Assembly (NCBI GenBank): GCA_050186295.1
Contig: JBFWYP010000004.1
Span: forward strand, 81,773 to 145,772
DNA: 64,000 nucleotides
Direction of reading: 5' to 3'
Source: Thermoanaerobaculia bacterium
Lineage (GTDB): Bacteria; Acidobacteriota; Thermoanaerobaculia; Multivoradales; JAGPDF01
Below the pieces are notes generated by a model. The model was given only the letters and a program-made list of their open reading frames with translations. It ran no database searches and was not told where the DNA came from. Below are positions 15,511-28,526 of the stretch, one piece after another; position 1 is the first letter of the stretch, and each line of letters begins with the position of its first letter. Made by a program: the position numbers and the translations under genes.

Positions 15511-16668
15511 TCAACCTGCTTCCGCGGCCAGCTCCTCTGCGTAGCGCTGGTAGGAGAAGATCCGTCCGCGTCGCCGCTTCGTGAGCTCGGCCACCAGCCC
15601 CAGCTTCTCGAGGTGTACGAGCGACTTGTTGACCGTGGCGGGAGTGAGTCCCGTCGCCTCGACGAGCGAGCCGGAGGTCGAGATCGGCTGCCGCTGCAAC
15701 GCCTCGTGCACCGCGAGCGCCGACGGCGCCGCGCGGCCCAGGCCGACGATGCGCTCCCGATCCTCGGCGACCAGGGCGAGGAGCGCGTTCGCCGTGGCGA
15801 CCGCCTGCGCCGCGCTCACCTCGACTCCCTCGGCGAAGAACTCGAGCCAGCTCTCCCAGTCGCCGTGGAGTCGCACCTCGTTCAGCAGCTCGTAGTAGCG
15901 AGCGCGGTGCATCCGGAAGTAGAGGCTCGGATAGAGCATCGGCTCGCGCAGCACACCGTCGGCGACGAGCTGAAGGACGATCAGCAGACGCCCGAGGCGG
16001 CCGTTCCCGTCGAGGAACGGATGGATCGTCTCGAACTGCACGTGCGCGAGCGCCGCCTTGAGCAGCGGCGGCGTGGCCTCGGACTCGTCGTTCAGGAAGC
16101 GCTCGAACTGCCGGAGACAGTCGGGCAGCGCGTTTGCCGGGGGCGGAACGAAGGCGGCGTTGCCCGGCCGAGTGCCGCCGACCCAGACCTGCGAGCGGCG
16201 GATCTCCCCCGGCATCCTGCTCTGCCCGCCGGGATGGGCGAGCAGCACTGCGTGCATTCCGCGCAGCAGTCGCATCGAGAGCGGCATCCCGCCGCGCAGC
16301 GCGGCGAGGCCGTGCTCCAGCGCCGCGACGCAACGACTGACTTCGCGGGCATCCTCCACCGGCACGCCCGGCTGCTCGTCGATCTCGAAGAGCAGCAGGT
16401 CGGCGAGCGAGGACTGCGTGCCTTCGATCTGCGACGAGAGCACCGCCTCCTTGCGTACGAAGCTGTAGAGCACGAGCGCAGCATTCGGCAGATGCTCGGT
16501 GAGTGCATCGAGCCGCCCCAGGGCAACGAGCGCGTCGTCGAAGCGTCGCCGCAACGCCGGCGACCAGACGATGGCCGGCTCCGGCGGCAGCGGTGCAGGC
16601 ACGAACGCCCGGAAGCGCTCGCCGGAGGCGGAGACTTCGACGTAGGTTCCGGGATCGGAGCGGTGCAT
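15511..16668 (-). CDS. Fic family protein (AMPylase) with an N-terminal inhibitory SxxxEG motif and a C-terminal winged-HTH
   Basis: Canonical HPFLDGNGRLGRLL Fic motif. An upstream SSQIEG matches the (S/T)xxxE(G/N) inhibitory helix. The C-terminal wHTH-like segment is ...EATGLTPATVNKSLVHLEKLGLV. Confidence 0.85.
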   Translation of the reverse strand: MHRSDPGTYVEVSASGERFRAFVPAPLPPEPAIVWSPALRRRFDDALVALGRLDALTEHLPNAALVLYSFVRKEAVLSSQIEGTQSSLADLLLFEIDEQPGVPVEDAREVSRCVAALEHGLAALRGGMPLSMRLLRGMHAVLLAHPGGQSRMPGEIRRSQVWVGGTRPGNAAFVPPPANALPDCLRQFERFLNDESEATPPLLKAALAHVQFETIHPFLDGNGRLGRLLIVLQLVADGVLREPMLYPSLYFRMHRARYYELLNEVRLHGDWESWLEFFAEGVEVSAAQAVATANALLALVAEDRERIVGLGRAAPSALAVHEALQRQPISTSGSLVEATGLTPATVNKSLVHLEKLGLVAELTKRRRGRIFSYQRYAEELAAEAG

Positions 16669-16743: not shown

Positions 16744-18303
16744 TCAGCCCCGCTCTGCGACCAGCCGCTCGAGCGCCGCGACGATTTCGATCATCCCCGC
16801 GGTGTCGCGCGCGCAGTAGTCGAGGAGCGCGCGGCGGATCGACTCGCGCTCCGCCGCGGTGGTTCCGGGCGCGTTCGAGCGCACGAACTCGCGCGCCGCG
16901 AGCTGCCCCTCCTGGATCTCGAGCTCGTCGTAGCCGCGGTCGCCCAGCACCGGCAGCACCCGCTTGAGCGAGGCGCTGCCGCGCTGCGCCGGGTGGTAGT
17001 AGTCGAAGCGCGCGAACGGATCGAGCAGATCGACGAGCCGGCCGGTGACGCGCGCCGCCCACTCGACGTGCTCGGGAAAGTGCGCCGCCGTCTCGGCGAG
17101 CACCCGCCGCTCGAACGAAGCGTTGTAGACCAGGATCGCCGGCGGCGGTCCTCCCCCGGCGGCCGCGTCGAGCTCGCCGATCGCCGCCCGCAGCGCCGCG
17201 AGGAAGCCCGCTCGCGGATCGTCGCCGTCCGGCGCCAGCCAGGCGTCGGCGCGCGGCGCCGCACCCTCCTCTTCCAGCCGATGGAGCGAGAACTGGAACG
17301 GGATCTGCTGGTAGGGGCGCGTGCCATCGAACGGCGGCACGGCGGAGGCGAAGGTCTCGAAGTCGAGGAAGAGGCGCGGATACGGGAGCTGCTCGAGGAA
17401 CGAGGCGATCGCCGCGCGATTCACGTGCGCCTCGCCGGTGCGCGCCGCCTCGACCTGGATCCGCTGGTCGGCCTGGAGCTCCGCGGTCGCCGGCAGGGAG
17501 CGGAGGTCGCGCACGCCGCTCCCGTAGAGCTGCCACATCCGCTGCCCGCCGCGGCGGAGGTCGAGGAGGTCGTGCTCCGGCCGTTCGCCCCAGCAGTACG
17601 GCAGGAGCGGGCAGGTGTGCGGCGCCTTGCAGTGCGGACCGATCGCGATCTCCGGCTCCGCCGGAAGCGCCGCGACCGCGACGAGCTCGGCGACCCGCTG
17701 CGGAATCTCCCGCGCCAGCGCCGCGACCTGCTCGCCGAGATCGACGACGGTGAAGAGCCGCCGGAGATCGAGCGCCCCCTCGCGCACGTAGTCCGAGCTC
17801 AGATGCACGAGCGAGGTGCGACGCACCCGCAGCCCGGCCGAGCGCACGATCCAGGCCTGGAGCGCGAGATCCTCGACGTTCTCGTCCCTGGCGGACGTGC
17901 CGCTCTTCACCTCGTACAGATCCCAGGCGCCGGCGCTCCCCGCCTCTCCCCCGTCGTCGTCCACCGGCACCAGGATGTCGACCCGGCAGCCGACGTCGGC
18001 ATCGCCACCACCCTCGCCAGCGCCGCCAGCGCCGCCAGCGACGAACGTCGCCTCGTACAGCGGCAACCGCCAGGCGAGCGCATCGCGCGTCTTCGCCGCC
18101 GCCTCCATCCAGCGGAAGCGTCCACCGGTGATCTCCATCCCGCCCGGAAAGAGCTGCTGCGCCAATCGCCCCACCTCGTGCCCCTGATCGAACACTGCCT
18201 TCGTCGCGGCGTCCACCGGCGGCACGAGCTCCCGGCGATTCGCTTCGATCCAGAGCCGCTTGAAGCACTGCCGGCCGGCGAGGTAGCGGGATTTGGAGAG
18301 CAT
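16744..18303 (-). CDS. DUF2779 protein: Cas4/RecB-like PD-(D/E)xK Fe-S nuclease domain fused to a DnaQ-like DEDD 3'-5' exonuclease domain
   Basis: Starts MLSKSRYLAGRQCFKRLW, the family-typical N-terminus with the first Cys. A D...EVK nuclease core (VDILVPV...DLYEVKSG) and a CKAPHTCPLLPYC Cys cluster. The C-terminal half has Exo motifs LFLDFETF (I), YNASFE (II) and LLDYCARD (III). Confidence 0.7.
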   Translation of the reverse strand: MLSKSRYLAGRQCFKRLWIEANRRELVPPVDAATKAVFDQGHEVGRLAQQLFPGGMEITGGRFRWMEAAAKTRDALAWRLPLYEATFVAGGAGGAGEGGGDADVGCRVDILVPVDDDGGEAGSAGAWDLYEVKSGTSARDENVEDLALQAWIVRSAGLRVRRTSLVHLSSDYVREGALDLRRLFTVVDLGEQVAALAREIPQRVAELVAVAALPAEPEIAIGPHCKAPHTCPLLPYCWGERPEHDLLDLRRGGQRMWQLYGSGVRDLRSLPATAELQADQRIQVEAARTGEAHVNRAAIASFLEQLPYPRLFLDFETFASAVPPFDGTRPYQQIPFQFSLHRLEEEGAAPRADAWLAPDGDDPRAGFLAALRAAIGELDAAAGGGPPPAILVYNASFERRVLAETAAHFPEHVEWAARVTGRLVDLLDPFARFDYYHPAQRGSASLKRVLPVLGDRGYDELEIQEGQLAAREFVRSNAPGTTAAERESIRRALLDYCARDTAGMIEIVAALERLVAERG

Positions 18304-18428
18304 TGGGTCGCCCGGAGGCTGGGCGGAAGAGTATCGCTCCAGGCGGAGAAGACGGAGTTCGCCGGTGTGGCGATGGAAGTGCGACTAGCCCCCGGCGCTG
18401 TGCCAGAGGACCAAACAAATCCAGGCAG

Positions 18429-19100
18429 CTAGCCCGGCCGCTCCAAGACCCGGAAGTATGTATCGAGGTGGACGCGCTCCACGTTCCACTTCCTCGAGAC
18501 CTGGAGTGCGGCCTCTTGAAACCGCTCGTTGCTCTCCACGTCGATGTCGCCGATCTTCCGCCACGCCGGAGCAATGTCCGGCTCCAGCTCGTGGAGACGC
18601 CGGCCGGAGATACTGTCGAGAGGGACCTCGAACCAGTCCGGCGAAACCTTCGAGCCGAACTCGGACTTCAGGAACGCGTTGTAGTAGCAGTCGCGAAGAA
18701 AGATGTTCAGACACTTTCGCGCCAGCCCCCAGGCGCATCGTCCGACTCCAACGGCCTCCTGAATCCTGTCCGTCCAGCGATCGAGTGCCGCGAGGGGCCT
18801 CTTCTGGCCCGACACTCCAAAACTCGACAGGCGGACGTGAGAGAGCGCCGAACGAAGATCGTCGACGAGTCCAGCTTTCTGCCCTCGAGCCGTGGAAGCG
18901 CCAACGGCAAGCCTCGCGCATCGGAGATCAATGGCGAGATGCAAACTAGGCCGCTTCTTGAGAGAAGCCGCCGCTGGGCCCCGGGGTGAACGAGCGGATC
19001 CGCATCGGGGCCGGTGGTTGTCGGCCCTGCCTTCACTCTCAGCATCACTTCGGCATACGAGCCTGTCGCCGCTGTCGACTTCGCTTCGCCACGCTGGCAT
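18429..19100 (-). CDS. Hypothetical protein in the SIR2 operon; start uncertain
   Basis: The C-terminal 130 aa are protein-like and lower in GC (…CLNIFLRDCYYNAFLKSEFGSKVSPDWFEVPLDSISGRRLHELEPDIAPAWRKIGDIDVESNERFQEAALQVSRKWNVERVHLDTYFRVLERPG). The ATG at 19100 is 14 nt after the upstream gene's stop. The N-terminal part is compositionally poor, so the true start may lie further downstream. Confidence 0.4.
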   Translation of the reverse strand: MPAWRSEVDSGDRLVCRSDAESEGRADNHRPRCGSARSPRGPAAASLKKRPSLHLAIDLRCARLAVGASTARGQKAGLVDDLRSALSHVRLSSFGVSGQKRPLAALDRWTDRIQEAVGVGRCAWGLARKCLNIFLRDCYYNAFLKSEFGSKVSPDWFEVPLDSISGRRLHELEPDIAPAWRKIGDIDVESNERFQEAALQVSRKWNVERVHLDTYFRVLERPG

Positions 19101-19114
19101 TTGCGCATCCAACG

Positions 19115-19771
19115 CTAGGGTGAGGCGCCGGGCGCCAAACCTACCGAAACCAAGTAGCGATTGTGCAGTTCCACGAATAGCTTCAGCAACCGCCCAACCT
19201 CGTTCACACAAGACGGTGCGAGAGGGCCGGACCACTCGATTCCAGAGTGCAGAAACCCGTTTCGTGCTTTTGCAACTTCGCCAAGAAATTCCCAGCCCTC
19301 TTCCGCTTCGAGCTCAGCCACTGCTCGATCGAGCGGAACGGCAGTGAGGGTCTGAAACAACTCGGCCATTCGGCGCCGTCCTCGAGCCTTGTCGAATAGA
19401 TCCCGCTGTTCCTCGTTGGCGAGACCTTTGCGCACCATTAGCCTCTTTAGGAGGTGGCGCAGCAACGCTTCCTGAAGGGCACAGAAATAGTTAACAGTCG
19501 CTAGTTCCGCGCCCTTGTTTGCCCAAGGCGGCGCCCCTCCAATGGAGAGTGCCAGCCATCGTTGCTGTTGCATGAGATCCACTAAAGAAAGCACCTGCAT
19601 CGGGAAGTAGGCGCGCGACACAACATTCTCAACACCGCATGCCGGGCAAGGCCATGGCACCGCTGCTCCAAACCGGCCCACGACATCGCACTGGTGGCAG
19701 ATGATGTAGCCACCGAGGACCGCTGAAAGGGGTTGGAGCGGATCGATGTCGTAGAGTTGAAGCTGGGCCAT
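19115..19771 (-). CDS. Zinc-ribbon protein with a HEPN-like RNxxxH motif (candidate RNase effector)
   Basis: CHQC-x16-CPAC zinc ribbon (aa 25-45). The rest is alpha-helical. KARNGFLHSG (R170, N171, H175) fits the HEPN Rx4-6H / RNxxxH signature. GC is lower than in flanking DNA. Confidence 0.6.
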   Translation of the reverse strand: MAQLQLYDIDPLQPLSAVLGGYIICHQCDVVGRFGAAVPWPCPACGVENVVSRAYFPMQVLSLVDLMQQQRWLALSIGGAPPWANKGAELATVNYFCALQEALLRHLLKRLMVRKGLANEEQRDLFDKARGRRRMAELFQTLTAVPLDRAVAELEAEEGWEFLGEVAKARNGFLHSGIEWSGPLAPSCVNEVGRLLKLFVELHNRYLVSVGLAPGASP

Positions 19772-19828
19772 GAACCCGCGTTCAAGCCTGCGTCACTTTC
19801 CAAATCACTCCTAGCTCTCTCGCGACCA

Positions 19829-22624
19829 TCAACTTTGGCTCCTCAGTGTCCTGTAGAGCTCCTCAGCACCTTCGATCCTTCGCATCCGTTCAAGCAGTCG
19901 AAAGGATTCCGACCTGAAACCGGCTGATGAGAGCCTTCTCACCGTCTCTAGCAAGTGGCCATCCAGATCGAAGTCGGGCTCACTGGCGTCCAACGCGAGG
20001 CTGAGCAGGACAAGAACCTCATGCGGGTTCAAGTCCGCTAGCCGTACAAACTCTTCGGCCACTTCATAAAAGTCGACGCCTTTCGCCACTTCTGGAATCA
20101 CTCTCCTCAGCCAGTCCATTGCCTCGTCATCAAGCCGCTCGACGAAGCAGATAAGACGACCAAGGGCTCTCTTCAGTTCAGCCAGACTTCCGGCACCCTC
20201 ATCGCGCAACTCCAGAGTCCGCCGGACGAAGCTGAGGATCTTTGCCACCTGCGTCGCCTCTAGACCTTGCCGCTCAAGTGCCCAATAAAGGTGAGCCACA
20301 ACGACAAGATCCTCCTCACGGCCACTTCCCACGAGAAAGGTCAGGTTCTCGCCGTCGAGCTCCTCCTCCCCCCAGAGATAGCCCAAGCCAACAGACTCCA
20401 CTAGCCGCTCTCGGGCCTGGCGGCCTCTCGGGGGGTGCCTCAGGCCATCGAGAATGACCCCACCGTCGCGAAGAGCACGATAGACGGCACGGGATGTCGC
20501 CGCGTACGCCAATCCGTCCAAGGCGCTCTCCCTCGTCAAACGCCCCTCGAGGGAGAAAACACCCAGAGCCCTTGATCGCACCCACTCGTCGTCTAGATAG
20601 TAGAAGTTTGAAAGCCGCGAGCCGAGCAAAGTTGAGAACTCGAAATTTCCATCCGTGCACCGATCCAACTCACGATCAAAGATCGGCCGAACACGGCTCC
20701 AGGCTGTCGAATGCCCCGCCTTGGCTAGATCAGCCTCGCGACAGCTTCGTAGGGTCAGGCCAATCAGTGACTCAATGACCTTCCCGCGAGTACTGTTGAT
20801 CGCCTGATGCATTGGGTCATCGTCGAGGGTATCGGCAGGCTTCAGGCGATCAAGTAGCGCAGTTGTGATTTCGATCGCAACCTCAAGCAAAGAAGCCGGA
20901 ATCCCTCGGAGCTCGTCACGCGCTCCGGCGGCTAGCGCCTTCATAGCAGCGCTCGAAACGGCCTCTGGCTCCCCCTTCCATGAGAGCACTTCCCTAGTTG
21001 CCCAAGACTCATCGGTAAGCAAGAACTTACGCACGCCGTTGATCAGCTGCTTCCAGAGTTCCGCAGTATCAATGGCTATCTCGGCAACAGAATTCTTTGA
21101 CCAGAGCCTGCTCACGGCCATTAGGAATGCATAAAAGTATTCCGGCCGCGCCTCTAGATAGATAGCCGGGGCGCGAAGGAATTCTTCCGGTGACTCCACA
21201 ATCGCTTCCTCAAACTCTTGAATCAACGCGTCGACGGGGGATCCATTCCACGTCTCATCGCCTCGCATCGCGTTGATCTGCGAAATCAAGGTACCCTCGA
21301 TCGCCATGGCCTTTAGAGCGCCACGTGACAGCGGAGAGGGGCCCGGCCCCCACCTGGTCTCGTGGTAGATCTGGAAGTCGGGGTGCTCGGATGATGGCAA
21401 TGCCCCGGCCGCATTCGCCTTGGCGAGAACCTCTTCAACCCAAGCAAGCCCTTTCCCCTCCAAAGCCCGGAGCCACTTCGCCGTTCGAAATAGAAACTCC
21501 CTCTCGTCATCAGGGTTTGCTCGGGCAACCTCTTCAATCGCAGAGCGCGTTAGCTCCTTCTGCTCTTCACTGAACTCGGCCCATCGTTGCGCAACCAACT
21601 CATAGGTCTCGTGAAACAGATCGACCGCAAAGTGTGCGGTGTTCGGATGAAATGCGGACGCGAGCCCAGCCCATCTCTCTTTTAGGACGTAAAGGCCAAT
21701 CCTGCGAAGAATCTGCGAATCGCTTCGCAAAAGGCCCTCGACAAACTCTCGCGCTCCAGCCTGGCCCGAATCAATCCACTCAAGCGTTGAATCACGAAGC
21801 GCTTCGACAAACCCGTTTGCGACAGCCTCCCAGCTGTGATTCTGATCGTGGTCGCCGATCGATGGTCGAATAGAGCAGCTGAGTTGCTGACCGAGAGATG
21901 TTCCAAAGACCTGGCGGATTCGATCCGAAAGGAGTGCCGTCGCGTCCGCTCCCATTTCCCGGCCGAAAGTTTTTGCGTGGTCCAGCAGAAGCTTTCTTAG
22001 CCAGTACGCTTCGACAGCCGGAACGGCGCGCCCCTGGTCAAGGTCGTCGCTCGCCGGTTCCCGAACTGAAAGAGCGGTCAGGTGCCCGAATACCCGAAGT
22101 GCTAACACTTTGCATCGCGGCTCCTCGCTTCCAAGGAGATTTGAGAGAAGACCCTTGGAAACTGCCTCTGAGACAAGCGCACCTTCGAACCTTCCGGCGA
22201 GCCAAATTGGCAGGAGATCCACGGTCTCTTCACGGATGAGCGAAACCGGAACCGCGCCCAAGATTTCCGCAAAGATCCGATTGGTGTGGTAGTTATCCCG
22301 CTGCTGGGATCCCGACCCCAGACTAACTTCACGCACTACTTCGAGCACCTGCGCTCCGAGCTCGAGATCAGGCTTGGAGCTGGACCGCCTAGCGACCGCA
22401 AGGAGATATCTGAGTACAGGCCAGAAGGGAATTCGGTAGTAGCCCCTGTTCGCCTCGTCTTCCACCGGCACTGGATTCTCGCCAGCGGAAAAGAATCCCT
22501 CCTGCAGCAGGTCTTCGAAATGCTTCTCGGGCTTCTCCCGAGCCGCGAGCTCCTCAAATCCGAACGAGGCGAGCTCTCTGCTCGCTCGCAGCTTTCGCAT
22601 GAAGGCCTCGAAGTTCGCACTCAC
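19829..22624 (-). CDS. Large (931 aa) alpha-helical protein without recognisable catalytic motifs; candidate sensor partner of the SIR2 protein
   Basis: Single long protein-like ORF in a reduced-GC region. No Walker A/B, HxH, DxD or nuclease motifs were seen. Its start overlaps the SIR2 stop (ATGA at 22621-22624). Confidence 0.7.
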   Translation of the reverse strand: MSANFEAFMRKLRASRELASFGFEELAAREKPEKHFEDLLQEGFFSAGENPVPVEDEANRGYYRIPFWPVLRYLLAVARRSSSKPDLELGAQVLEVVREVSLGSGSQQRDNYHTNRIFAEILGAVPVSLIREETVDLLPIWLAGRFEGALVSEAVSKGLLSNLLGSEEPRCKVLALRVFGHLTALSVREPASDDLDQGRAVPAVEAYWLRKLLLDHAKTFGREMGADATALLSDRIRQVFGTSLGQQLSCSIRPSIGDHDQNHSWEAVANGFVEALRDSTLEWIDSGQAGAREFVEGLLRSDSQILRRIGLYVLKERWAGLASAFHPNTAHFAVDLFHETYELVAQRWAEFSEEQKELTRSAIEEVARANPDDEREFLFRTAKWLRALEGKGLAWVEEVLAKANAAGALPSSEHPDFQIYHETRWGPGPSPLSRGALKAMAIEGTLISQINAMRGDETWNGSPVDALIQEFEEAIVESPEEFLRAPAIYLEARPEYFYAFLMAVSRLWSKNSVAEIAIDTAELWKQLINGVRKFLLTDESWATREVLSWKGEPEAVSSAAMKALAAGARDELRGIPASLLEVAIEITTALLDRLKPADTLDDDPMHQAINSTRGKVIESLIGLTLRSCREADLAKAGHSTAWSRVRPIFDRELDRCTDGNFEFSTLLGSRLSNFYYLDDEWVRSRALGVFSLEGRLTRESALDGLAYAATSRAVYRALRDGGVILDGLRHPPRGRQARERLVESVGLGYLWGEEELDGENLTFLVGSGREEDLVVVAHLYWALERQGLEATQVAKILSFVRRTLELRDEGAGSLAELKRALGRLICFVERLDDEAMDWLRRVIPEVAKGVDFYEVAEEFVRLADLNPHEVLVLLSLALDASEPDFDLDGHLLETVRRLSSAGFRSESFRLLERMRRIEGAEELYRTLRSQS

Positions 22625-23625
22625 GGCTCGGCCTCAAGTAGAGCTCTCATCTCGAGCTTTTCCTGCATTACAAGGGGCGTTGCTGCCGGAATTTCCTTGG
22701 CAAACGCCTCCAGCACGTCAATAAGCTGATCGTAACCTCGCCCATCTAGCGCAAACGGAACTAGTTCGATTCCACACTCCTCGCGGTAGTAAGTTCTAAG
22801 CCTTCGCATCATCGCTAGTTCATGCGTGAAATATCCCTGAAGCATGTAGTGCCGCTGAGCTCTTCCAGCCTCTGACCTGTGCCTCGCCTTCTGAACAACG
22901 TACTCGAGAACCTCAAGTTCGTCGAAGCCGTAGCCAACAAACAACACACTGTACTGACTAAAGAGATGCTCCAAGAATGTCAAGATGCGATTCTCATCCT
23001 GACTCGTTCGAACGAACCTATCGTTTGCGTAGTGATCCAAGTAGTCCCGCGTGGTGAGAACCATCTCTTCAGGGAACTCAATCGAACCGTGAAGGTGAAC
23101 GACGGTATCCGGCTGTCTCAGGTCGTCTGGGAGTATCAGGCTCGGTTTGCTCACCATCCTGCGCTTTAGCCGTTGCGGAGCGCTATTCATCGCCGCTTCA
23201 GGCTCGAAGTCGCCCCGATACTCGCGGTCCTCGTCTAGCCACCGATCGTAGTTCGTCGTGACGAAATTCCTCGACAGTCGCGACAGGGCGCGATAGAGCC
23301 GAATACCCTTCTCGTTCTTCTCCCAATCCTTCGGATGGAGTATTGCCTGGAAATCGATTGGCGTGCTGTGTTCCCGCGCCAGTGCGGTGGCAATCGCCAG
23401 TTTGATCTTGGCACCCTTGCGTTTGAGAAGTTCGACTTCAGCGTGATTCAGCTTTCCTCTTTCAACGAAGAATTGTAAGCACCTGTCGGCAAAACCGCTC
23501 CAATCTGGGCATCCAGCGAGCCGCGATGCGCCCGCACCTACGAAAGGCCTAAGGTAACCGATGGCTGCGGCCTCGCGAAGGCCTTCGGGGATCGCTGGTA
23601 TCGCTTGAATATCTGCCAGAGACAT
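22621..23625 (-). CDS. SIR2-like (SIR2_2/DHS-like NAD-binding) domain protein, defence-type NADase candidate
   Basis: MSLADIQAIP...LRPFVGAGASRLAGCPDWSGF (the GAGxS loop), VTTNYDRWLDE (the TTNYD motif) and VVHLHGSIE (the catalytic His motif). It is 334 aa with no deacetylase Zn module. Confidence 0.8.
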   Translation of the reverse strand: MSLADIQAIPAIPEGLREAAAIGYLRPFVGAGASRLAGCPDWSGFADRCLQFFVERGKLNHAEVELLKRKGAKIKLAIATALAREHSTPIDFQAILHPKDWEKNEKGIRLYRALSRLSRNFVTTNYDRWLDEDREYRGDFEPEAAMNSAPQRLKRRMVSKPSLILPDDLRQPDTVVHLHGSIEFPEEMVLTTRDYLDHYANDRFVRTSQDENRILTFLEHLFSQYSVLFVGYGFDELEVLEYVVQKARHRSEAGRAQRHYMLQGYFTHELAMMRRLRTYYREECGIELVPFALDGRGYDQLIDVLEAFAKEIPAATPLVMQEKLEMRALLEAEP

Positions 23626-23780
23626 CGGACCCGAACCTAGACCTGGACTCTGAAGCTCTTCATCACCTCACCCTCCAGCTGATTGATTACCCTCACCGCA
23701 ATCTCCCCCGACTTCGCTTTCTCGAACAGCCTTGAAGTGTCACTACGGTACGTCGCCCAAGCCTCGTCGTCGAAATCGGC

Positions 23781-24287
23781 TCAGAGCGTCGTCTTGAGCG
23801 CCTTGCAGGGCACGTTGGCGCCGAGGAAACAGTTGTTGCGAGCGAAGATCTCTCCTTCGGTATAGTCGGAGTCAATGGCCCAGCGGGCGACGCCGACGAC
23901 GTCGCCGCAGCGGATCTCGCCAGTCTTGGGGCCGAAGATGTCGGCGCCCTTGACCTTGACGCGATTCTGAGCGCTTTGACCCTGAACAGTCTCGGAACCG
24001 GGTTCGCGGAAATTGACAAAGTAACTGCCGCTGTTCCGCGCCTCCAATTTGTGAACCAGCCGTACTCTCACAAGCCTGTGGTTCCCATCCTCCACGCGGT
24101 TGTCGACCGCCGTATTCCGAGCCGGGCACGTCACCGCGTTAGTCGGCCGGCAGGTGTGCCAACGCCACTCGCGTGGTGCCTGCGCTCGCAATTCGGATCC
24201 CGCGTCAGTCACGCTAGGTTCTCCAGATATTCCAAGACACAGATTAGGTGCGCGGAGCACCGAAGAATCTATCGTGCAGTCCATCAA
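23781..24287 (-). CDS. Possible small orphan ORF or gene remnant in the 740-nt spacer between the two defence modules; start uncertain (track TTG at 24287 or internal GTG near 24071)
   Basis: The C-terminal about 95 aa are protein-like (…YFVNFREPGSETVQGQSAQNRVKVKGADIFGPKTGEIRCGDVVGVARWAIDSDYTEGEIFARNNCFLGANVPCKALKTTL). No family was recognised and the N-terminal part is weak. Confidence 0.25.
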   Translation of the reverse strand: MMDCTIDSSVLRAPNLCLGISGEPSVTDAGSELRAQAPREWRWHTCRPTNAVTCPARNTAVDNRVEDGNHRLVRVRLVHKLEARNSGSYFVNFREPGSETVQGQSAQNRVKVKGADIFGPKTGEIRCGDVVGVARWAIDSDYTEGEIFARNNCFLGANVPCKALKTTL

Positions 24288-24365
24288 GTTGGCCTCCCAA
24301 AGCGAGGTCCGACGAGCTCCCCGCTCGAGTCTCTCACTTCGGCAAGTGTGCCCTCCAGAACGCCT

Positions 24366-26828
24366 TCAAATTCCCACAACGGCGACGAATTCCCCGACAA
24401 CTCGCACTACTTCGGGCGCTTCCGGCTCCAACACGATTGCCTCGTACCCACCCCGGTCGCTGTCGGGACTGAGAACGATCCGCTCGTGCTGCCAACTCCC
24501 GTCTTCGGCTGCCCCCTTGTCGCTCCTGTAGAGCTTCACCGTGTAGCGGCCCCCGGACTCCGGGTCGGATCCTTCGCGTAGCTCGACCAAGACCACCTTC
24601 CCGGCCCTCGAGCCCGCTGGCGCTTCGCGGAACAGGCACCAGGAGCCGTTCGGGATCCGCCGGTTCATCGACTCGCCGACCACCTGGATCAGGAATCTCC
24701 CGGGGCGGGCTGGGAAATCTTCCGGAAGTGCGACCCAATCGATAGCTTCTGACACCTCGCCGTCCTCCGCCGCCTGAATCAGGGCCTGGAACTCGCTGAA
24801 GCCGCCTGCCGCTGCGCGCAGGTCGAAAACCGGGATGGCGTTCTCGAAAGGCCGAAGCGCTTCGGCAGCCACTCGCTCGAACGGGAGCGAGCGGGCGGGC
24901 CGGCTCTCGGGGGGTGAGGTTGCCTCCGCTTCGTCGGCGCGGCCGGGAAATGCGAGCGGAGTACCGATCCGGCTGCGAAAGAAGCGCTCGGTGTCTTTGT
25001 CCTCGAAGTAGACGAAGCAGCCCTTGAGGCCACGCGAGAGAAGGACTCGGTAGGTGTTCTTCACCAGGGCCAGGAATTCACCCTTCGCTCGCTTGACCTT
25101 GGTGTCCTGCGACACTTCCGGATGCCCCTCCCACACCTGTCGGTCGAGGTCATAGGTCAAGTCTTTCCCGAAGATGACGCCGACAAAGTCGAACTCGAAT
25201 CCCTGCGCCGTATAGACACAGCCGATCTGGAAAAGACCTCCTGGATCGTGCGCCCAGAGATTGGACTTGGGGATACCTGGGGCGAGCTTCCCGGCGTCGG
25301 GCCTGGCATTCCATGGCCGCGCGAATCCGTCGATGGTGACATCGTTCTCGAGCTGGCCGTTCTTGTCCGGTTTCGACCAAGGCCAACAGAATCCGGCAGT
25401 GAGGCGCGCCGTTGCTCCGGCCTGCACTTTCGAACGAATCAGCTGATCGAGCTCCTCGGGGCTCTCGCAGATGCCGAACTCGAAGCCTTCCTCGGTCTGC
25501 AGGATGCTGCTCGGCGTCTTTTCGATTCCGAGCGTGTTGTTGACCCACTCGACGAACTGGTCGGAGCCGGCGCAGCGGAACTGTGCGTGCAGCTCATACT
25601 CGAGCACGCGGCAACCCAGTGACGCGGCACTGGAGCGGATGTAGTCCGTAGAGCCGATCTCTCCAGGCCGCACGACCTGGCGATCGTCCACGAAGTAGAC
25701 GCTCACCTTGGAGGCATGGATCAGCTCCTCGACCTGCGGTAGGCCGCTGCGCCGACTCTTCGGCGTAAACCGGTCCACGCTCGTCGTCCGGATCCGGTGC
25801 GACTCGTCGCAGATCAGAACGTCGATCTCGTTCGGTTGCGCCTCGACGTAGCTATTGAAGTACTTGAACTGCACCTGGCTCCGCGAGCCGACCATTTTCC
25901 GCAGCGTTTCCGTGAACGCCTTCGAACCGGTCGCATAGTGCGAGTTGAAGCCCTCCGCGAGAAGCGAGCTCATGAGATTGAGCGCGATGACCGACTTCCC
26001 GGTCCCGGGTCCGCCACGAACGATCAGGACGGTCTTCTTCGCGTCGTGGAAGCCGGACTTCGCCAGCGCGAGGACCTTGCTGTGAACGACCAGCTGCTCA
26101 TCCAGGAGGACATACTGCGGCAGGCCCTGAATCACCTTCGCGACGTGGTCCATCAAGCGCTTGCTGGCGCGGTACTTTCCCTCTTCGATGCGCTGCAGGA
26201 CCGGCATCCCGTCCCCGCCACGGAGCCGCTCCGCGAGGAACTGAGAGAGCTCGTCGGAGTGCGACGCAGTGAATGACGGCGCCTCCTGGAGAATCTGCTG
26301 GTAGCGCGGGCGGAAAAGGGTGTCGTCGGCGACCGGGTTGTAGTTGTGCAGAAAGGCGCAGGCGGTCACCCCGACGGGCGACTCTCCTTCGTAGAAGGCG
26401 GTGTGCCCATCCTTCAGATACTGCCTGTAGGCGTTCGCCTGGGCAGATGGGTGCAGAACGTCGCGGATCGCACCGCCGACCCAGGTCTGCACCAGATTCT
26501 CGCCGTCCGACTCCTCACACTGCTCCCACTGCTTGAGCTCGATGATGATCGCCTGGGCCCGGCCCGGCTCGTCGTGCCCGCAAACGAGGCAGTCGAGCCG
26601 CTTCGATGTCAGTGGCAGTTTGTATTCGAGGAGAACGCCGTGGTCGTCGAGCGAGGAGCGCTGGAACGTCAGCGTCAGTGCGCGGAGCGAGTTCTGCCAG
26701 GAAGCGACCTCGCCATCGCCGGGCTTGTATCCGAAGTGGGCGACGAAAGCCTCGACGAGCTTGCCGGCAATCCGGTTCCGTGCCGTGTCCTCGAAGAGCT
26801 GGGTCGTGCTTCCTGAATACAGCCTCAT
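24366..26828 (-). CDS. DUF2075-type nuclease/P-loop NTPase (PD-(D/E)xK N-domain plus SF1-like ATPase) fused to a C-terminal LexA/S24-like peptidase domain
   Basis: N-terminal SWQNSLRAL and ...RLDCLVCGHD...AIIIELKQW (D-ExK). Walker A VRGGPGTGKS (aa 271-279) and Walker B VLICDESHR. The C-terminal 120 aa read ...LRAAAGGF...LIQVVGESMNRRIPNGSWCLFRE...GKVVLVEL...RYTVKLY. This gives a GESM serine nucleophile plus a downstream Lys, with an Ala-Gly about 45 aa upstream. Confidence 0.75.
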   Translation of the reverse strand: MRLYSGSTTQLFEDTARNRIAGKLVEAFVAHFGYKPGDGEVASWQNSLRALTLTFQRSSLDDHGVLLEYKLPLTSKRLDCLVCGHDEPGRAQAIIIELKQWEQCEESDGENLVQTWVGGAIRDVLHPSAQANAYRQYLKDGHTAFYEGESPVGVTACAFLHNYNPVADDTLFRPRYQQILQEAPSFTASHSDELSQFLAERLRGGDGMPVLQRIEEGKYRASKRLMDHVAKVIQGLPQYVLLDEQLVVHSKVLALAKSGFHDAKKTVLIVRGGPGTGKSVIALNLMSSLLAEGFNSHYATGSKAFTETLRKMVGSRSQVQFKYFNSYVEAQPNEIDVLICDESHRIRTTSVDRFTPKSRRSGLPQVEELIHASKVSVYFVDDRQVVRPGEIGSTDYIRSSAASLGCRVLEYELHAQFRCAGSDQFVEWVNNTLGIEKTPSSILQTEEGFEFGICESPEELDQLIRSKVQAGATARLTAGFCWPWSKPDKNGQLENDVTIDGFARPWNARPDAGKLAPGIPKSNLWAHDPGGLFQIGCVYTAQGFEFDFVGVIFGKDLTYDLDRQVWEGHPEVSQDTKVKRAKGEFLALVKNTYRVLLSRGLKGCFVYFEDKDTERFFRSRIGTPLAFPGRADEAEATSPPESRPARSLPFERVAAEALRPFENAIPVFDLRAAAGGFSEFQALIQAAEDGEVSEAIDWVALPEDFPARPGRFLIQVVGESMNRRIPNGSWCLFREAPAGSRAGKVVLVELREGSDPESGGRYTVKLYRSDKGAAEDGSWQHERIVLSPDSDRGGYEAIVLEPEAPEVVRVVGEFVAVVGI

Positions 26829-26831
26829 CGA

Positions 26832-27206
26832 TCAGAGCCGATCGTACTTGCGGTTGCTGCCGCGCGATCTCTCGACCGGATATTTCGACTCGTTGACCAC
26901 CAGCTTGGCGCGCAACGCATTCGCGGGGTCGATCCCGTTCCGCTCACAGAACCGCAGGAGAAAGAAGAGTGTGTCGCCGATCTCGTGTTCGATCGCCAGG
27001 CGATCGTTGGCGTCCGCGAGCCGCTCCTCGACCTCCTCGTCGCTCAGGAAGCGGAACTGCGCGAGGAGCTCGGCCGCTTCGGTGGCAAGCCCGATCGCCA
27101 GATCTTTGGGTGAGTGAAACGGATCCCACTCGCGCGCCTCGCAAAAGGCCTGGACCTCCTTCGCCAGCGCCGCAAGCGTGTCGCTCCTCGCACTGCCCTC
27201 GCTCAT
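26832..27206 (-). CDS. MazG-like nucleotide pyrophosphohydrolase (small all-alpha NTP-PPase)
   Basis: ATG at 27206 with a GGGAG RBS 5 nt upstream. It is preferred over the track TTG at 27311, which would leave only 17 nt to the upstream gene. The 124-aa protein has EAAELLAQF...EEExxE...EIGDTLFFLLRF motifs. Its stop lies 3 nt before the start of the downstream DUF2075 gene. Confidence 0.7.
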   Translation of the reverse strand: MSEGSARSDTLAALAKEVQAFCEAREWDPFHSPKDLAIGLATEAAELLAQFRFLSDEEVEERLADANDRLAIEHEIGDTLFFLLRFCERNGIDPANALRAKLVVNESKYPVERSRGSNRKYDRL

Positions 27207-27327
27207 GCGACTCCCATCGAAGTGAATTGCTGGCGGCACTCTACCGAACCGATCCGCCAGGGCCTTCGCCTCCTCACCCGTATCAACGAACAACTCCCCC
27301 AAACCGGTCAAATCGGGCGGAGTTTTC

Positions 27328-28320
27328 TCACCACCCCCACCTCCCCATCCAGTCGACGGCGTTCGAGAGGGCGTCGATCAGGCCGTGGAGGGCGACGATC
27401 AGGAGCCAGTTCCGGGTGCGCAGCCAGAGGACGCCGAAGAGGAGGCCGGCGACGCCCATGGTGGTGATGCTGTAGGCGAGCGCCAGGGCGAGGGAGGGCG
27501 GTTCGGTCATCCCTTCCAGCGCGGCGGCTCCGCGCAGCCAGAGGCCGGGGGCGTGGGCGAGGCCGAAGACGAGGGCCGCAAGGAAGAGGCCGGCCGCCGG
27601 GGAGCGGGTGAGGGCGGCGAGGCGCGACTGCAGGAGGATGCGGAAGAAGGTCTCCTCCACCAGCCCCGCCTCGAGCGACATCCAGAGGAACGAGAGGACG
27701 AGGCCGACGAGCCAGTGGCGGCCGGCGAGCGAGCCGTCGAGGAACGGGCGGGCGCCGTGGCCGATCAGGAGCTGGATCGCGACCATCGCCGCGCCGAGGA
27801 CGACGAAGGCGAGCCAGCTGCGGTTGCGCGTTCGGGCGTCGGAGGGCGGCCCGGGTGGCCAGCCGAGGCCGAGCGCTTTCGGCAATAGCGGCGATCTCCC
27901 GAGAGCGAATCGATAAGCCGCGAGCGGCACCGCGACGAAGACCGCGAGCTTGAGCAGGAGCTCGACCGTGTCGATCCAGCGCGGGTCCGAGCCCGGCGGC
28001 GCGAACGCCGCGACGAGTCGCCCCTTCGCCGCCAGGAAGAGGACCACCCAGCCGACCAGCGCGGCGAGGAGCCATCCCTCCCGCGCCCGCCGCGCGCCGG
28101 GCGCTCCCGCGCCGGAATCCTCTGGAGCCAGCGGCGGCAGCGGCAGACCGCGGCAGACGAGGAGCGCGACTCCGGGGAGCGCCAGGCCGAAGATCAGGAG
28201 GAGGAAGAGCGGGCCCTCGAGCGGCTTTCCGAGAGCCGCGAGGGTCGCGCCGCCCGCCAGCCAGGCGGCGGCGAAGAGCGCGAAGGCGATGGTCCCGGCC
28301 CGGCTCGCGCGGGCGGTCAT
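27328..28320 (-). CDS. CPBP family intramembrane metalloprotease (second copy, 331 aa)
   Basis: Internal ATG at 28320 gives MTARASRAGTIAFALFAAAWLAGG. Multi-TM protein with motifs EETFFR, FGLAHAPG and HGLIDALSNAV. Confidence 0.7.
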   Translation of the reverse strand: MTARASRAGTIAFALFAAAWLAGGATLAALGKPLEGPLFLLLIFGLALPGVALLVCRGLPLPPLAPEDSGAGAPGARRAREGWLLAALVGWVVLFLAAKGRLVAAFAPPGSDPRWIDTVELLLKLAVFVAVPLAAYRFALGRSPLLPKALGLGWPPGPPSDARTRNRSWLAFVVLGAAMVAIQLLIGHGARPFLDGSLAGRHWLVGLVLSFLWMSLEAGLVEETFFRILLQSRLAALTRSPAAGLFLAALVFGLAHAPGLWLRGAAALEGMTEPPSLALALAYSITTMGVAGLLFGVLWLRTRNWLLIVALHGLIDALSNAVDWMGRWGW

Positions 28321-28526
28321 CCTGTTCGGGTCTCCATGCCCGATCCCCCCGGAAGGTGACAGCGAAAGGGCGACTCTACCCGAGCGCTCCGCGCGGGCCA
28401 GGTCCACGAATTCCGGTCGCCGCTTCGACTGGGGTCATGCCCGTTTCGGCGCCAGGTTCCGGCGCCGATTCGCGTCTCTTTCGACGGGAGGACACAAGTT
28501 GACCACTATGTCATTTCTGACATACC

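Follow-up and report, generated by a model that had tools for sequence, protein, structure and literature searches.

The window analysed here, a 64,000-nucleotide (nt) stretch of a Thermoanaerobaculia bacterium (assembly GCA_050186295.1, contig JBFWYP010000004.1, positions 81,773 to 145,772 of the forward strand), carries a pair of overlapping genes encoding a 334-amino-acid (aa) SIR2-type protein and a 931-aa helical partner. We propose that this pair is probably a two-subunit DSR1 defence sirtuin, in which the NADase and the phage sensor are made as separate, translationally coupled proteins. An earlier note on this DNA had described it as a split DSR-like pair, with DSR2 as the term of comparison; a split DSR system composed of an effector and a non-enzymatic helical partner is what our analysis also found, but of the DSR1 type, with no similarity to the DSR2 sensor. 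The positions and sizes of both open reading frames (ORFs) in that note were exact, and the features of the pair are as follows.

22621-23625, minus strand: SIR2 (SIR2_2) NADase-type effector subunit, 334 aa (Pfam, PADLOC, homologues, AlphaFold2 model)
19829-22624, minus strand: putative DSR1-type sensor subunit, 931 aa, HEAT/ARM-like alpha-solenoid (PADLOC, alignment with P0262, AlphaFold2 model, fold matches)
22621-22624, minus strand: GTGA stop/start overlap, 4 nt (junction sequence)
23524-23538, minus strand: GAGAS NAD-binding loop, aa 30-34 of the SIR2 protein (read from the translation; G30, A31, G32 and S34 invariant in 37 homologues)
23245-23259, minus strand: TTNYD motif, aa 123-127, with the catalytic Asn N125 (T123, T124, N125 and D127 invariant in 37 homologues)
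23083-23097, minus strand: HLHGS motif, aa 177-181, with the catalytic His H179 (H177, L178, H179 and G180 invariant in 37 homologues)
22633-22677, minus strand: C-terminal helix of the SIR2 subunit, aa 317-331 (conserved sequence; low-confidence blocks in the model)

Comparison with the PADLOC Dsr1 model PDLC04166 (1227 positions) placed the SIR2 protein at positions 1-292 (E value 1.2e-53) and the sensor at positions 310-1166 (E value 8.1e-83). The same order was recovered by alignment with P0262, a fused 1227-aa SIR2 protein retrieved by the exhaustive search; SIR2 residues 5-311 aligned with residues 2-275 (25 % identity, E value 2e-20) and sensor residues 50-923 aligned with residues 341-1218 (26 % identity over 912 columns, E value 6e-86). 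Since both halves are homologous to and collinear with PDLC04166 and P0262, the two genes together correspond to a single DSR1-type protein divided at its effector-sensor linker. The PADLOC Dsr2 models returned no match to either protein. Judged by these alignments, the pair is a two-gene variant of DSR1 that shares its ancestry and is predicted to act likewise, and it is neither DSR1 sensu stricto nor DSR2; we kept it out of DSR1 sensu stricto because it is not a single polypeptide and lies below the equivalog threshold for that family.

The upstream gene encodes a protein with a Pfam SIR2_2 match (E=9.5e-19), and its GAGxS, TTNYD and HLHGS motifs, which the earlier note had picked out, are all intact. 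That note had also seen no deacetylase-type Zn module, and the presence of only three cysteines and no CxxC in the 334-aa protein bears this out. The SIR2 protein returned 785 relatives, and the best 120 are almost all about 330 aa long, with identities of 47-75 %. The AlphaFold2 model of the subunit (predicted local distance difference test, pLDDT, 84.2; predicted template modelling score, pTM, 0.84) has as its closest solved folds the anti-phage NADases KomC (the best match), ThsA and the SIR2 domain of DSR2, lending support to the two-subunit defence reading. At the C-terminus, helix 317-331 is weakly anchored in the monomer model (block pLDDT 69, 57 and 49), while among the 37 homologues P313 and L329 are near-invariant and the consensus ends in ...EMEALL. 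From the model, this helix is a candidate docking element for the sensor.

The downstream gene, which the National Center for Biotechnology Information (NCBI) labels 'hypothetical protein' both here and in other genomes, encodes a protein with no Pfam match. Neither it nor the SIR2 protein contains a Walker A motif, and its AlphaFold2 model, built from a 16-sequence alignment, is all-alpha (mean pLDDT 82.7, pTM 0.53), in agreement with the earlier description of an alpha-helical partner devoid of a P-loop, nuclease or other catalytic motif. Foldseek matched the model to generic HEAT/ARM solenoids only (RRP12, importin-beta, CAND1 and SF3B1; template modelling score about 0.25), and both lists of fold matches were free of DSR2 and of enzymes with catalytic folds. 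The possibility that an ATPase or nuclease family had been overlooked in this protein is thus answered by a solenoid fold with no family match. A profile of 16 sensor homologues likewise returned nothing at E<=1 against PDB sequences, although the PDB holds many DSR2 chains. The proposed comparison with DSR2 therefore came out in part, with a HEAT/ARM-like solenoid recovered but the DSR2 C-terminal domain matched neither by Foldseek nor by profile. A word-indexed search with the sensor found 17 full-length relatives of 929-952 aa (30-37 % identity) from Desulfovibrionales, other Proteobacteria, a candidate phyla radiation (CPR) bacterium and others; the single longer match, a 1206-aa protein, aligned over 22 % of the query at 26 % identity. 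Helices at the N-terminus of the sensor are conserved among its homologues.

The two genes meet at the junction ...GAG CCG TGA GTG..., where the TGA stop of the SIR2 gene, which comes first, overlaps the GTG start of the sensor gene by 4 nt. The earlier note was right about a 4-nt stop/start overlap but gave its sequence as ATGA, whereas it reads GTGA. Two observations make the GTG start credible: the alignment of the family profile begins at residue 1, and the near-invariant F8 precedes the first in-frame ATG (codon 9). Both ORFs are real genes rather than chance reading frames, given that full-length homologues exist at 30-75 % identity.

We then asked how far this layout extends. Four independent contigs each carry a SIR2_2 gene of 327-332 aa directly upstream of, and overlapping, the sensor gene, with all remaining neighbours different. 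An exhaustive profile search with the sensor returned 4358 relatives, 1421 of them at E<=1e-30, and a scan of GTDB species genomes added 80 further loci. Wherever a close sensor relative had enough upstream DNA, a separate SIR2 ORF was found directly upstream, bar two TIR fusions (L042 and L065). The SIR2 stop overlaps the sensor start in 56/56 related loci from many phyla, at identities of 21-50 %; these 56 are equivalent to about 53 independent loci, as L003, L004 and L022 share the same sequence and L016/L017 have an identical junction. Overlaps of 8 nt (31 loci), 4 nt (18), 1 nt (6) and 17 nt (1) were observed, the stops include TGA, TAA and TAG, and the sensor lies in either of the two alternative frames. 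The GTGA form itself recurs in loci L001, L009, L014, L021 and L031. A pair that is adjacent and overlapping in every one of these loci supports the translational coupling put forward in the earlier note, along with the conservation of the gene neighbourhood that it proposed to check. The arrangement is also present on a Vibrio coralliilyticus plasmid, where it is annotated as a 'SIR2 family protein' followed by a 'hypothetical protein'.

This conservation bears on two readings that would return the pair to a single gene. Collinearity of the halves with fused proteins, and a break located at a domain linker, would be expected of a single-gene DSR1 decayed through a frameshift, a nonsense mutation or an assembly error, the alternative that the earlier note had itself raised. 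However, the same break, with a proper overlapping start, recurs in 56 loci with four geometries and three stop codons, 116/124 full-length relatives (within the best 148) are of standalone size, and N-terminal sensor residues and C-terminal SIR2 residues are conserved. We consider decay scarcely credible, and the conserved split rules out a frameshift artefact or a recent pseudogene. Alternatively, ORFs overlapping in different frames could yield a fused DSR1 by programmed ribosomal frameshifting, besides or in place of the separate proteins. Yet the sensor is in frame -1 in some loci and +1 in others, the junction ...GAG GCC GAG CCG TGA contains no slippery heptamer and the start codon is placed for reinitiation in every locus. 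This explanation has next to no probability in our view, and we discarded it on the occurrence of both frames in the family together with the missing slippery site.

Architectures were classified among the best 148 representatives of the sensor relatives, sorted by length, with Pfam added for the long ones. Standalone-sized proteins of 900-970 aa made up 116 of these 148; the others were 24 fragments, five proteins of about 1100 aa with an N-terminal TIR fusion, two fusions to SIR2 (1227 and 1250 aa) and one protein with a 100-aa N-terminal extension. A neighbour-joining tree of 125 sensors, which is rough and in which 'split' was judged from length for the representatives, places the SIR2-fused and TIR-fused forms among split ones. 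The 1250-aa SIR2-fused P0241 has the standalone-sized P0235 as its nearest neighbour (distance 0.59), a pairing that may reflect a fusion or fission of recent date, or else an error of gene calling. The nesting of fused forms among split ones and the position of P0241 next to P0235 suggest repeated fusion or fission in the sensor family. The best-scoring sensor relatives include fusions to SIR2 or to TIR, another NADase, and this also favours the two-subunit defence reading.

Across 45 pairs, the SIR2 and sensor distance matrices correlate strongly (Mantel r=0.88, reached by 0/2000 permutations), and in 93 % of comparisons the sensor has diverged more than SIR2. The genes are co-inherited, and together these two results fit a conserved enzyme passed on along with a receptor that evolves faster. 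The greater divergence of the partner is what would be expected of a sensor, and so speaks for that role. In other genomes the pair is neighboured by defence genes, namely an MmeI-type restriction-modification (R-M) system, AbiEi, a PLD-helicase, an HNH McrA-like protein and SLATT. Together with the placement of the pair beside a Schlafen-type helicase in a low-GC island of the window, these neighbours further support a two-subunit defence system.

Several further observations concern relatives of the pair. The TIR-fused close relatives of the sensor are P0238, P0249, P0268, P0286 and P0287, with L065 (4425-7724) and L042 (2196-5537), and in more distant relatives (L075 and L081-L084) the N-terminus is extended by 200-320 aa to which Pfam gave no match. 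In Rhizobium sp. LjRoot258 (L040, 924-4978), an insertion of about 2.9 kb of the IS66 family (transposase PF03050, 5.6e-101) interrupts the SIR2 gene of a split pair and so inactivates the system in this strain. In L020 (4991-7841) and L045 (4991-7806), the sensor gene lies in two ORFs through a stop or frameshift, and the upstream SIR2 ORF aligns essentially full-length. Finally, 96 Bacillus plasmids (B. anthracis, B. mycoides and B. thuringiensis; H2-H15), mostly conjugative records of about 180 kb, encode fused 'SIR2 family proteins' in which the region following SIR2 is matched by the first 170-250 residues of the sensor.

As we picture it, the upstream gene would supply the SIR2 NADase effector, and the downstream gene, translated by termination-reinitiation at GTGA, would supply a HEAT/ARM-like solenoid of about 930 aa as the counterpart of the DSR1 sensor domain. 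The two would form a stable non-covalent complex that mimics the fused protein, with two conserved elements, the helix at the C-terminus of SIR2 and the helices at the N-terminus of the sensor, probably taking the place of the covalent linker. The solenoid would then capture an abundant phage protein, possibly a structural one (the major capsid protein is the reported trigger of E. coli Dsr1), and this binding would switch on NAD+ hydrolysis by SIR2, lowering NAD+ and blocking phage replication. For the split pair, we infer the formation of the complex, the identity of the trigger, the depletion of NAD+ and the defence phenotype from these comparisons.

The main alternative uses the same two proteins with the opposite logic: SIR2 would be intrinsically active and held in check stoichiometrically by the sensor, as in a toxin-antitoxin system, and phage-protein binding or depletion of the sensor would release the enzyme. 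Once released, SIR2 may assemble with itself into active oligomers or filaments, in the manner of ThsA and KomC. Two separate polypeptides permit such a release, translational coupling would fix their stoichiometry, and the solved structures of KomC and ThsA, whose SIR2 folds are the closest, are of helical filaments. On the other hand, release of an effector is impossible in the fused SIR2-sensor proteins that nest among the split relatives, the effector-first gene order means that the sensor is made after SIR2, which is unusual for an antidote, and in L020 and L045 the essentially full-length SIR2 ORF beside a broken sensor gene would be lethal if SIR2 were toxic by itself, though these loci may be wholly decayed. 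We regard release from inhibition as distinctly unlikely. SIR2 enzymes are also able to modify proteins, and the pair might be conceived of as a sirtuin with a housekeeping or regulatory task, acting as a protein deacylase or ADP-ribosyltransferase with a HEAT-repeat scaffold, outside phage defence. Against this, the protein belongs to the SIR2_2 family, lacks a Zn module and has defence NADases as its best matches, while the pair is patchy across phyla, occurs in low-GC islands and on plasmids beside R-M and Abi genes, and shows disruption by IS66 and pseudogenes; a housekeeping role is very improbable.

Returning to the two-subunit DSR1 reading, a number of results weigh against it. The NCBIfam Dsr1 equivalog NF041818 gave 28.1 and 28.3 bits for the two proteins against a cut-off of 1400, and two other PADLOC Dsr1 models matched the pair weakly. 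With the pair so remote from that family, the trigger and outcome of tested Dsr1 of the E. coli type are not simply transferable to it. The global shape of the sensor is uncertain in the model, whose pTM is only 0.53, and a promoter scan upstream of the pair found no sigma-70-like site. Terminator-like matches in the scan were fewer than in shuffled sequence.

Among known systems, the pair most resembles DSR1 (Gao et al. 2020; Garb et al. 2021/2022), sharing a SIR2_2 NADase module followed by a helical sensor of about 900 aa, but here these are two polypeptides linked only through the 4-nt stop/start overlap. Garb et al. described DSR1 as one SIR2-domain protein, which causes NAD+ to fall upon infection; with phage phi29 this fall was transient and no collapse of the culture followed. 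According to a 2026 preprint (PMC12803255), the Dsr1 sensor is homologous to that of Avs7, has a bent, bilobed repeat structure and, in E. coli, is triggered by the phage major capsid protein; the preprint also mentions "split proteins" for this sensor family, which indicates that specialists have met split cases. Our literature search, which did not extend to the supplementary tables of PMC12803255, found no paper describing or testing a split DSR1. The suggestion of the earlier note that the architecture is not a canonical one therefore holds for the named, tested systems, in which DSR1 is a single protein, but the split family is large and widespread.

DSR2 of Bacillus subtilis, a tetramer that senses the tail tube, shares the SIR2 NADase fold and the principle of a helical sensor activating NAD+ depletion; it differs in being a single chain with a non-homologous sensor, as judged from the lack of any PADLOC Dsr2, PDB-sequence or fold match. 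The TIR-fused relatives (P0238, P0268 and L065) have a closely related sensor solenoid in the same clade, but with an N-terminal TIR effector in cis instead of a separate SIR2 subunit. In SPARSA (a short prokaryotic Argonaute, pAgo, with SIR2-APAZ) and Kongming KomBC, the SIR2 NADase is likewise a separate subunit controlled by a partner, but the partners (pAgo and KomB) are unrelated to the sensor. SPARSA occurs in both fused and split forms. Pfam detected no PIWI/MID, APAZ or nucleotide-signal component in the pair.

Four further candidates were rejected. SIR2-HerA (Nezha) was set aside on account of a partner with a solenoid fold and no P-loop or ATPase family match, and SPARSA because the partner here has a HEAT/ARM-like fold and no Pfam match (no MID/PIWI). 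Thoeris did not apply, as ThsA models match the SIR2 part only, and weakly (3.6e-8), the 334-aa protein has no SLOG/Macro domain and the partner has no TIR. Avs5 (SIR2-STAND) was dismissed in the absence of an NTPase match or a Walker A motif in either protein.

DSR1 has been catalogued and tested solely as a single protein, and tools or curated models that expect one gene of about 1200 aa may overlook or mislabel the split form, even though two-gene systems are more numerous than fused ones among the sensor's close relatives. The two-gene layout is common in environmental bacteria. A split DSR1 is a sound, widespread and unsurprising architectural variant, extending a known form of immunity without revealing a new kind. 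The natural split lets sensor and effector be expressed, titrated and swapped apart, making the switching of a SIR2 NADase by a helical receptor testable. A bolder idea, which we advance tentatively and consider fairly unlikely, is that the free-standing two-subunit layout is ancestral and dominant in the sensor clade. The solenoid would then be an exchangeable, trans-acting receptor captured repeatedly by NADases, giving rise to SIR2 fusions (classical DSR1) and TIR fusions, and activation would proceed through the assembly or rearrangement of a non-covalent complex and not through intramolecular allostery. If an ancestral split layout were true, it would offer a naturally occurring means of uncoupling sensing and killing in DSR-type immunity.

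The pair sits in an island of about 9 kb whose guanine-cytosine (GC) content is low for the window (about 70 % overall). The neighbouring features are as follows.

18300-27300, no strand: low-GC island carrying the pair (GC 52-66 % vs 72-75 % in the flanks), given as context and outside the system
15511-16668 and 16744-18303, minus strand: Fic/DOC and DUF2779 genes, high-GC flank
18429-19235, minus strand: orf268, up to 268 aa, true start uncertain, overlapping the end of the 218-aa gene
19115-19771, minus strand: 218-aa ZnR/HEPN-like ORF with CxxC...CxxC and Rx4H (ARNGFLH), 57 nt downstream of the sensor gene
23781-24287, minus strand: ORF whose last ~60 residues resemble the C-terminus of a Type III methyltransferase (PADLOC MTase_III positions 875-937, 3.8e-14)
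24366-26828, minus strand: 820-aa protein with a Schlafen group-3 helicase domain (PF09848, 1.7e-82)
26832-27311, minus strand: MazG-like gene at the island edge
27328-28407: CAAX-protease-like gene on the opposite flank

The GC content at third codon positions (GC3) is 0.61-0.63 for the pair vs 0.88-0.91 for the flanking Fic and DUF2779 genes and, together with the low GC of the island, points to its horizontal acquisition; no convincing att-like repeats or tRNA genes bounding the island were found. Homologues of the window neighbours (the 218-aa ORF, orf268, the Schlafen-type helicase, the methyltransferase remnant and the MazG-like gene) were present in 0/85 related loci, so the conserved unit is the two genes alone. 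This gives no support to the second effector that the earlier note had thought possible among the downstream genes; moreover, the 218-aa protein is an orphan, with no Pfam, PADLOC or NCBIfam match and only itself found among 5.8 billion proteins. Its GC3 of 0.63 is like that of the SIR2 pair, and it may therefore have arrived on the same DNA.

On the other side of the pair, the gene for the 820-aa Schlafen helicase shares the low-GC island and is probably a defence gene in its own right. PADLOC also matched this protein, less strongly, to PDC-S41, AbiO and Nhi, and its residues 687-751 weakly resemble an S24 peptidase. Between this helicase and the SIR2 gene, the ORF at 23781-24287 looks, from its methyltransferase-like end, like the remnant of a deleted R-M system. 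The '223-aa unknown' of the earlier note corresponds to orf268, which has no Pfam, PADLOC or NCBIfam match, and a terminator-like hairpin lies just past its stop (18437-18421, minus strand).

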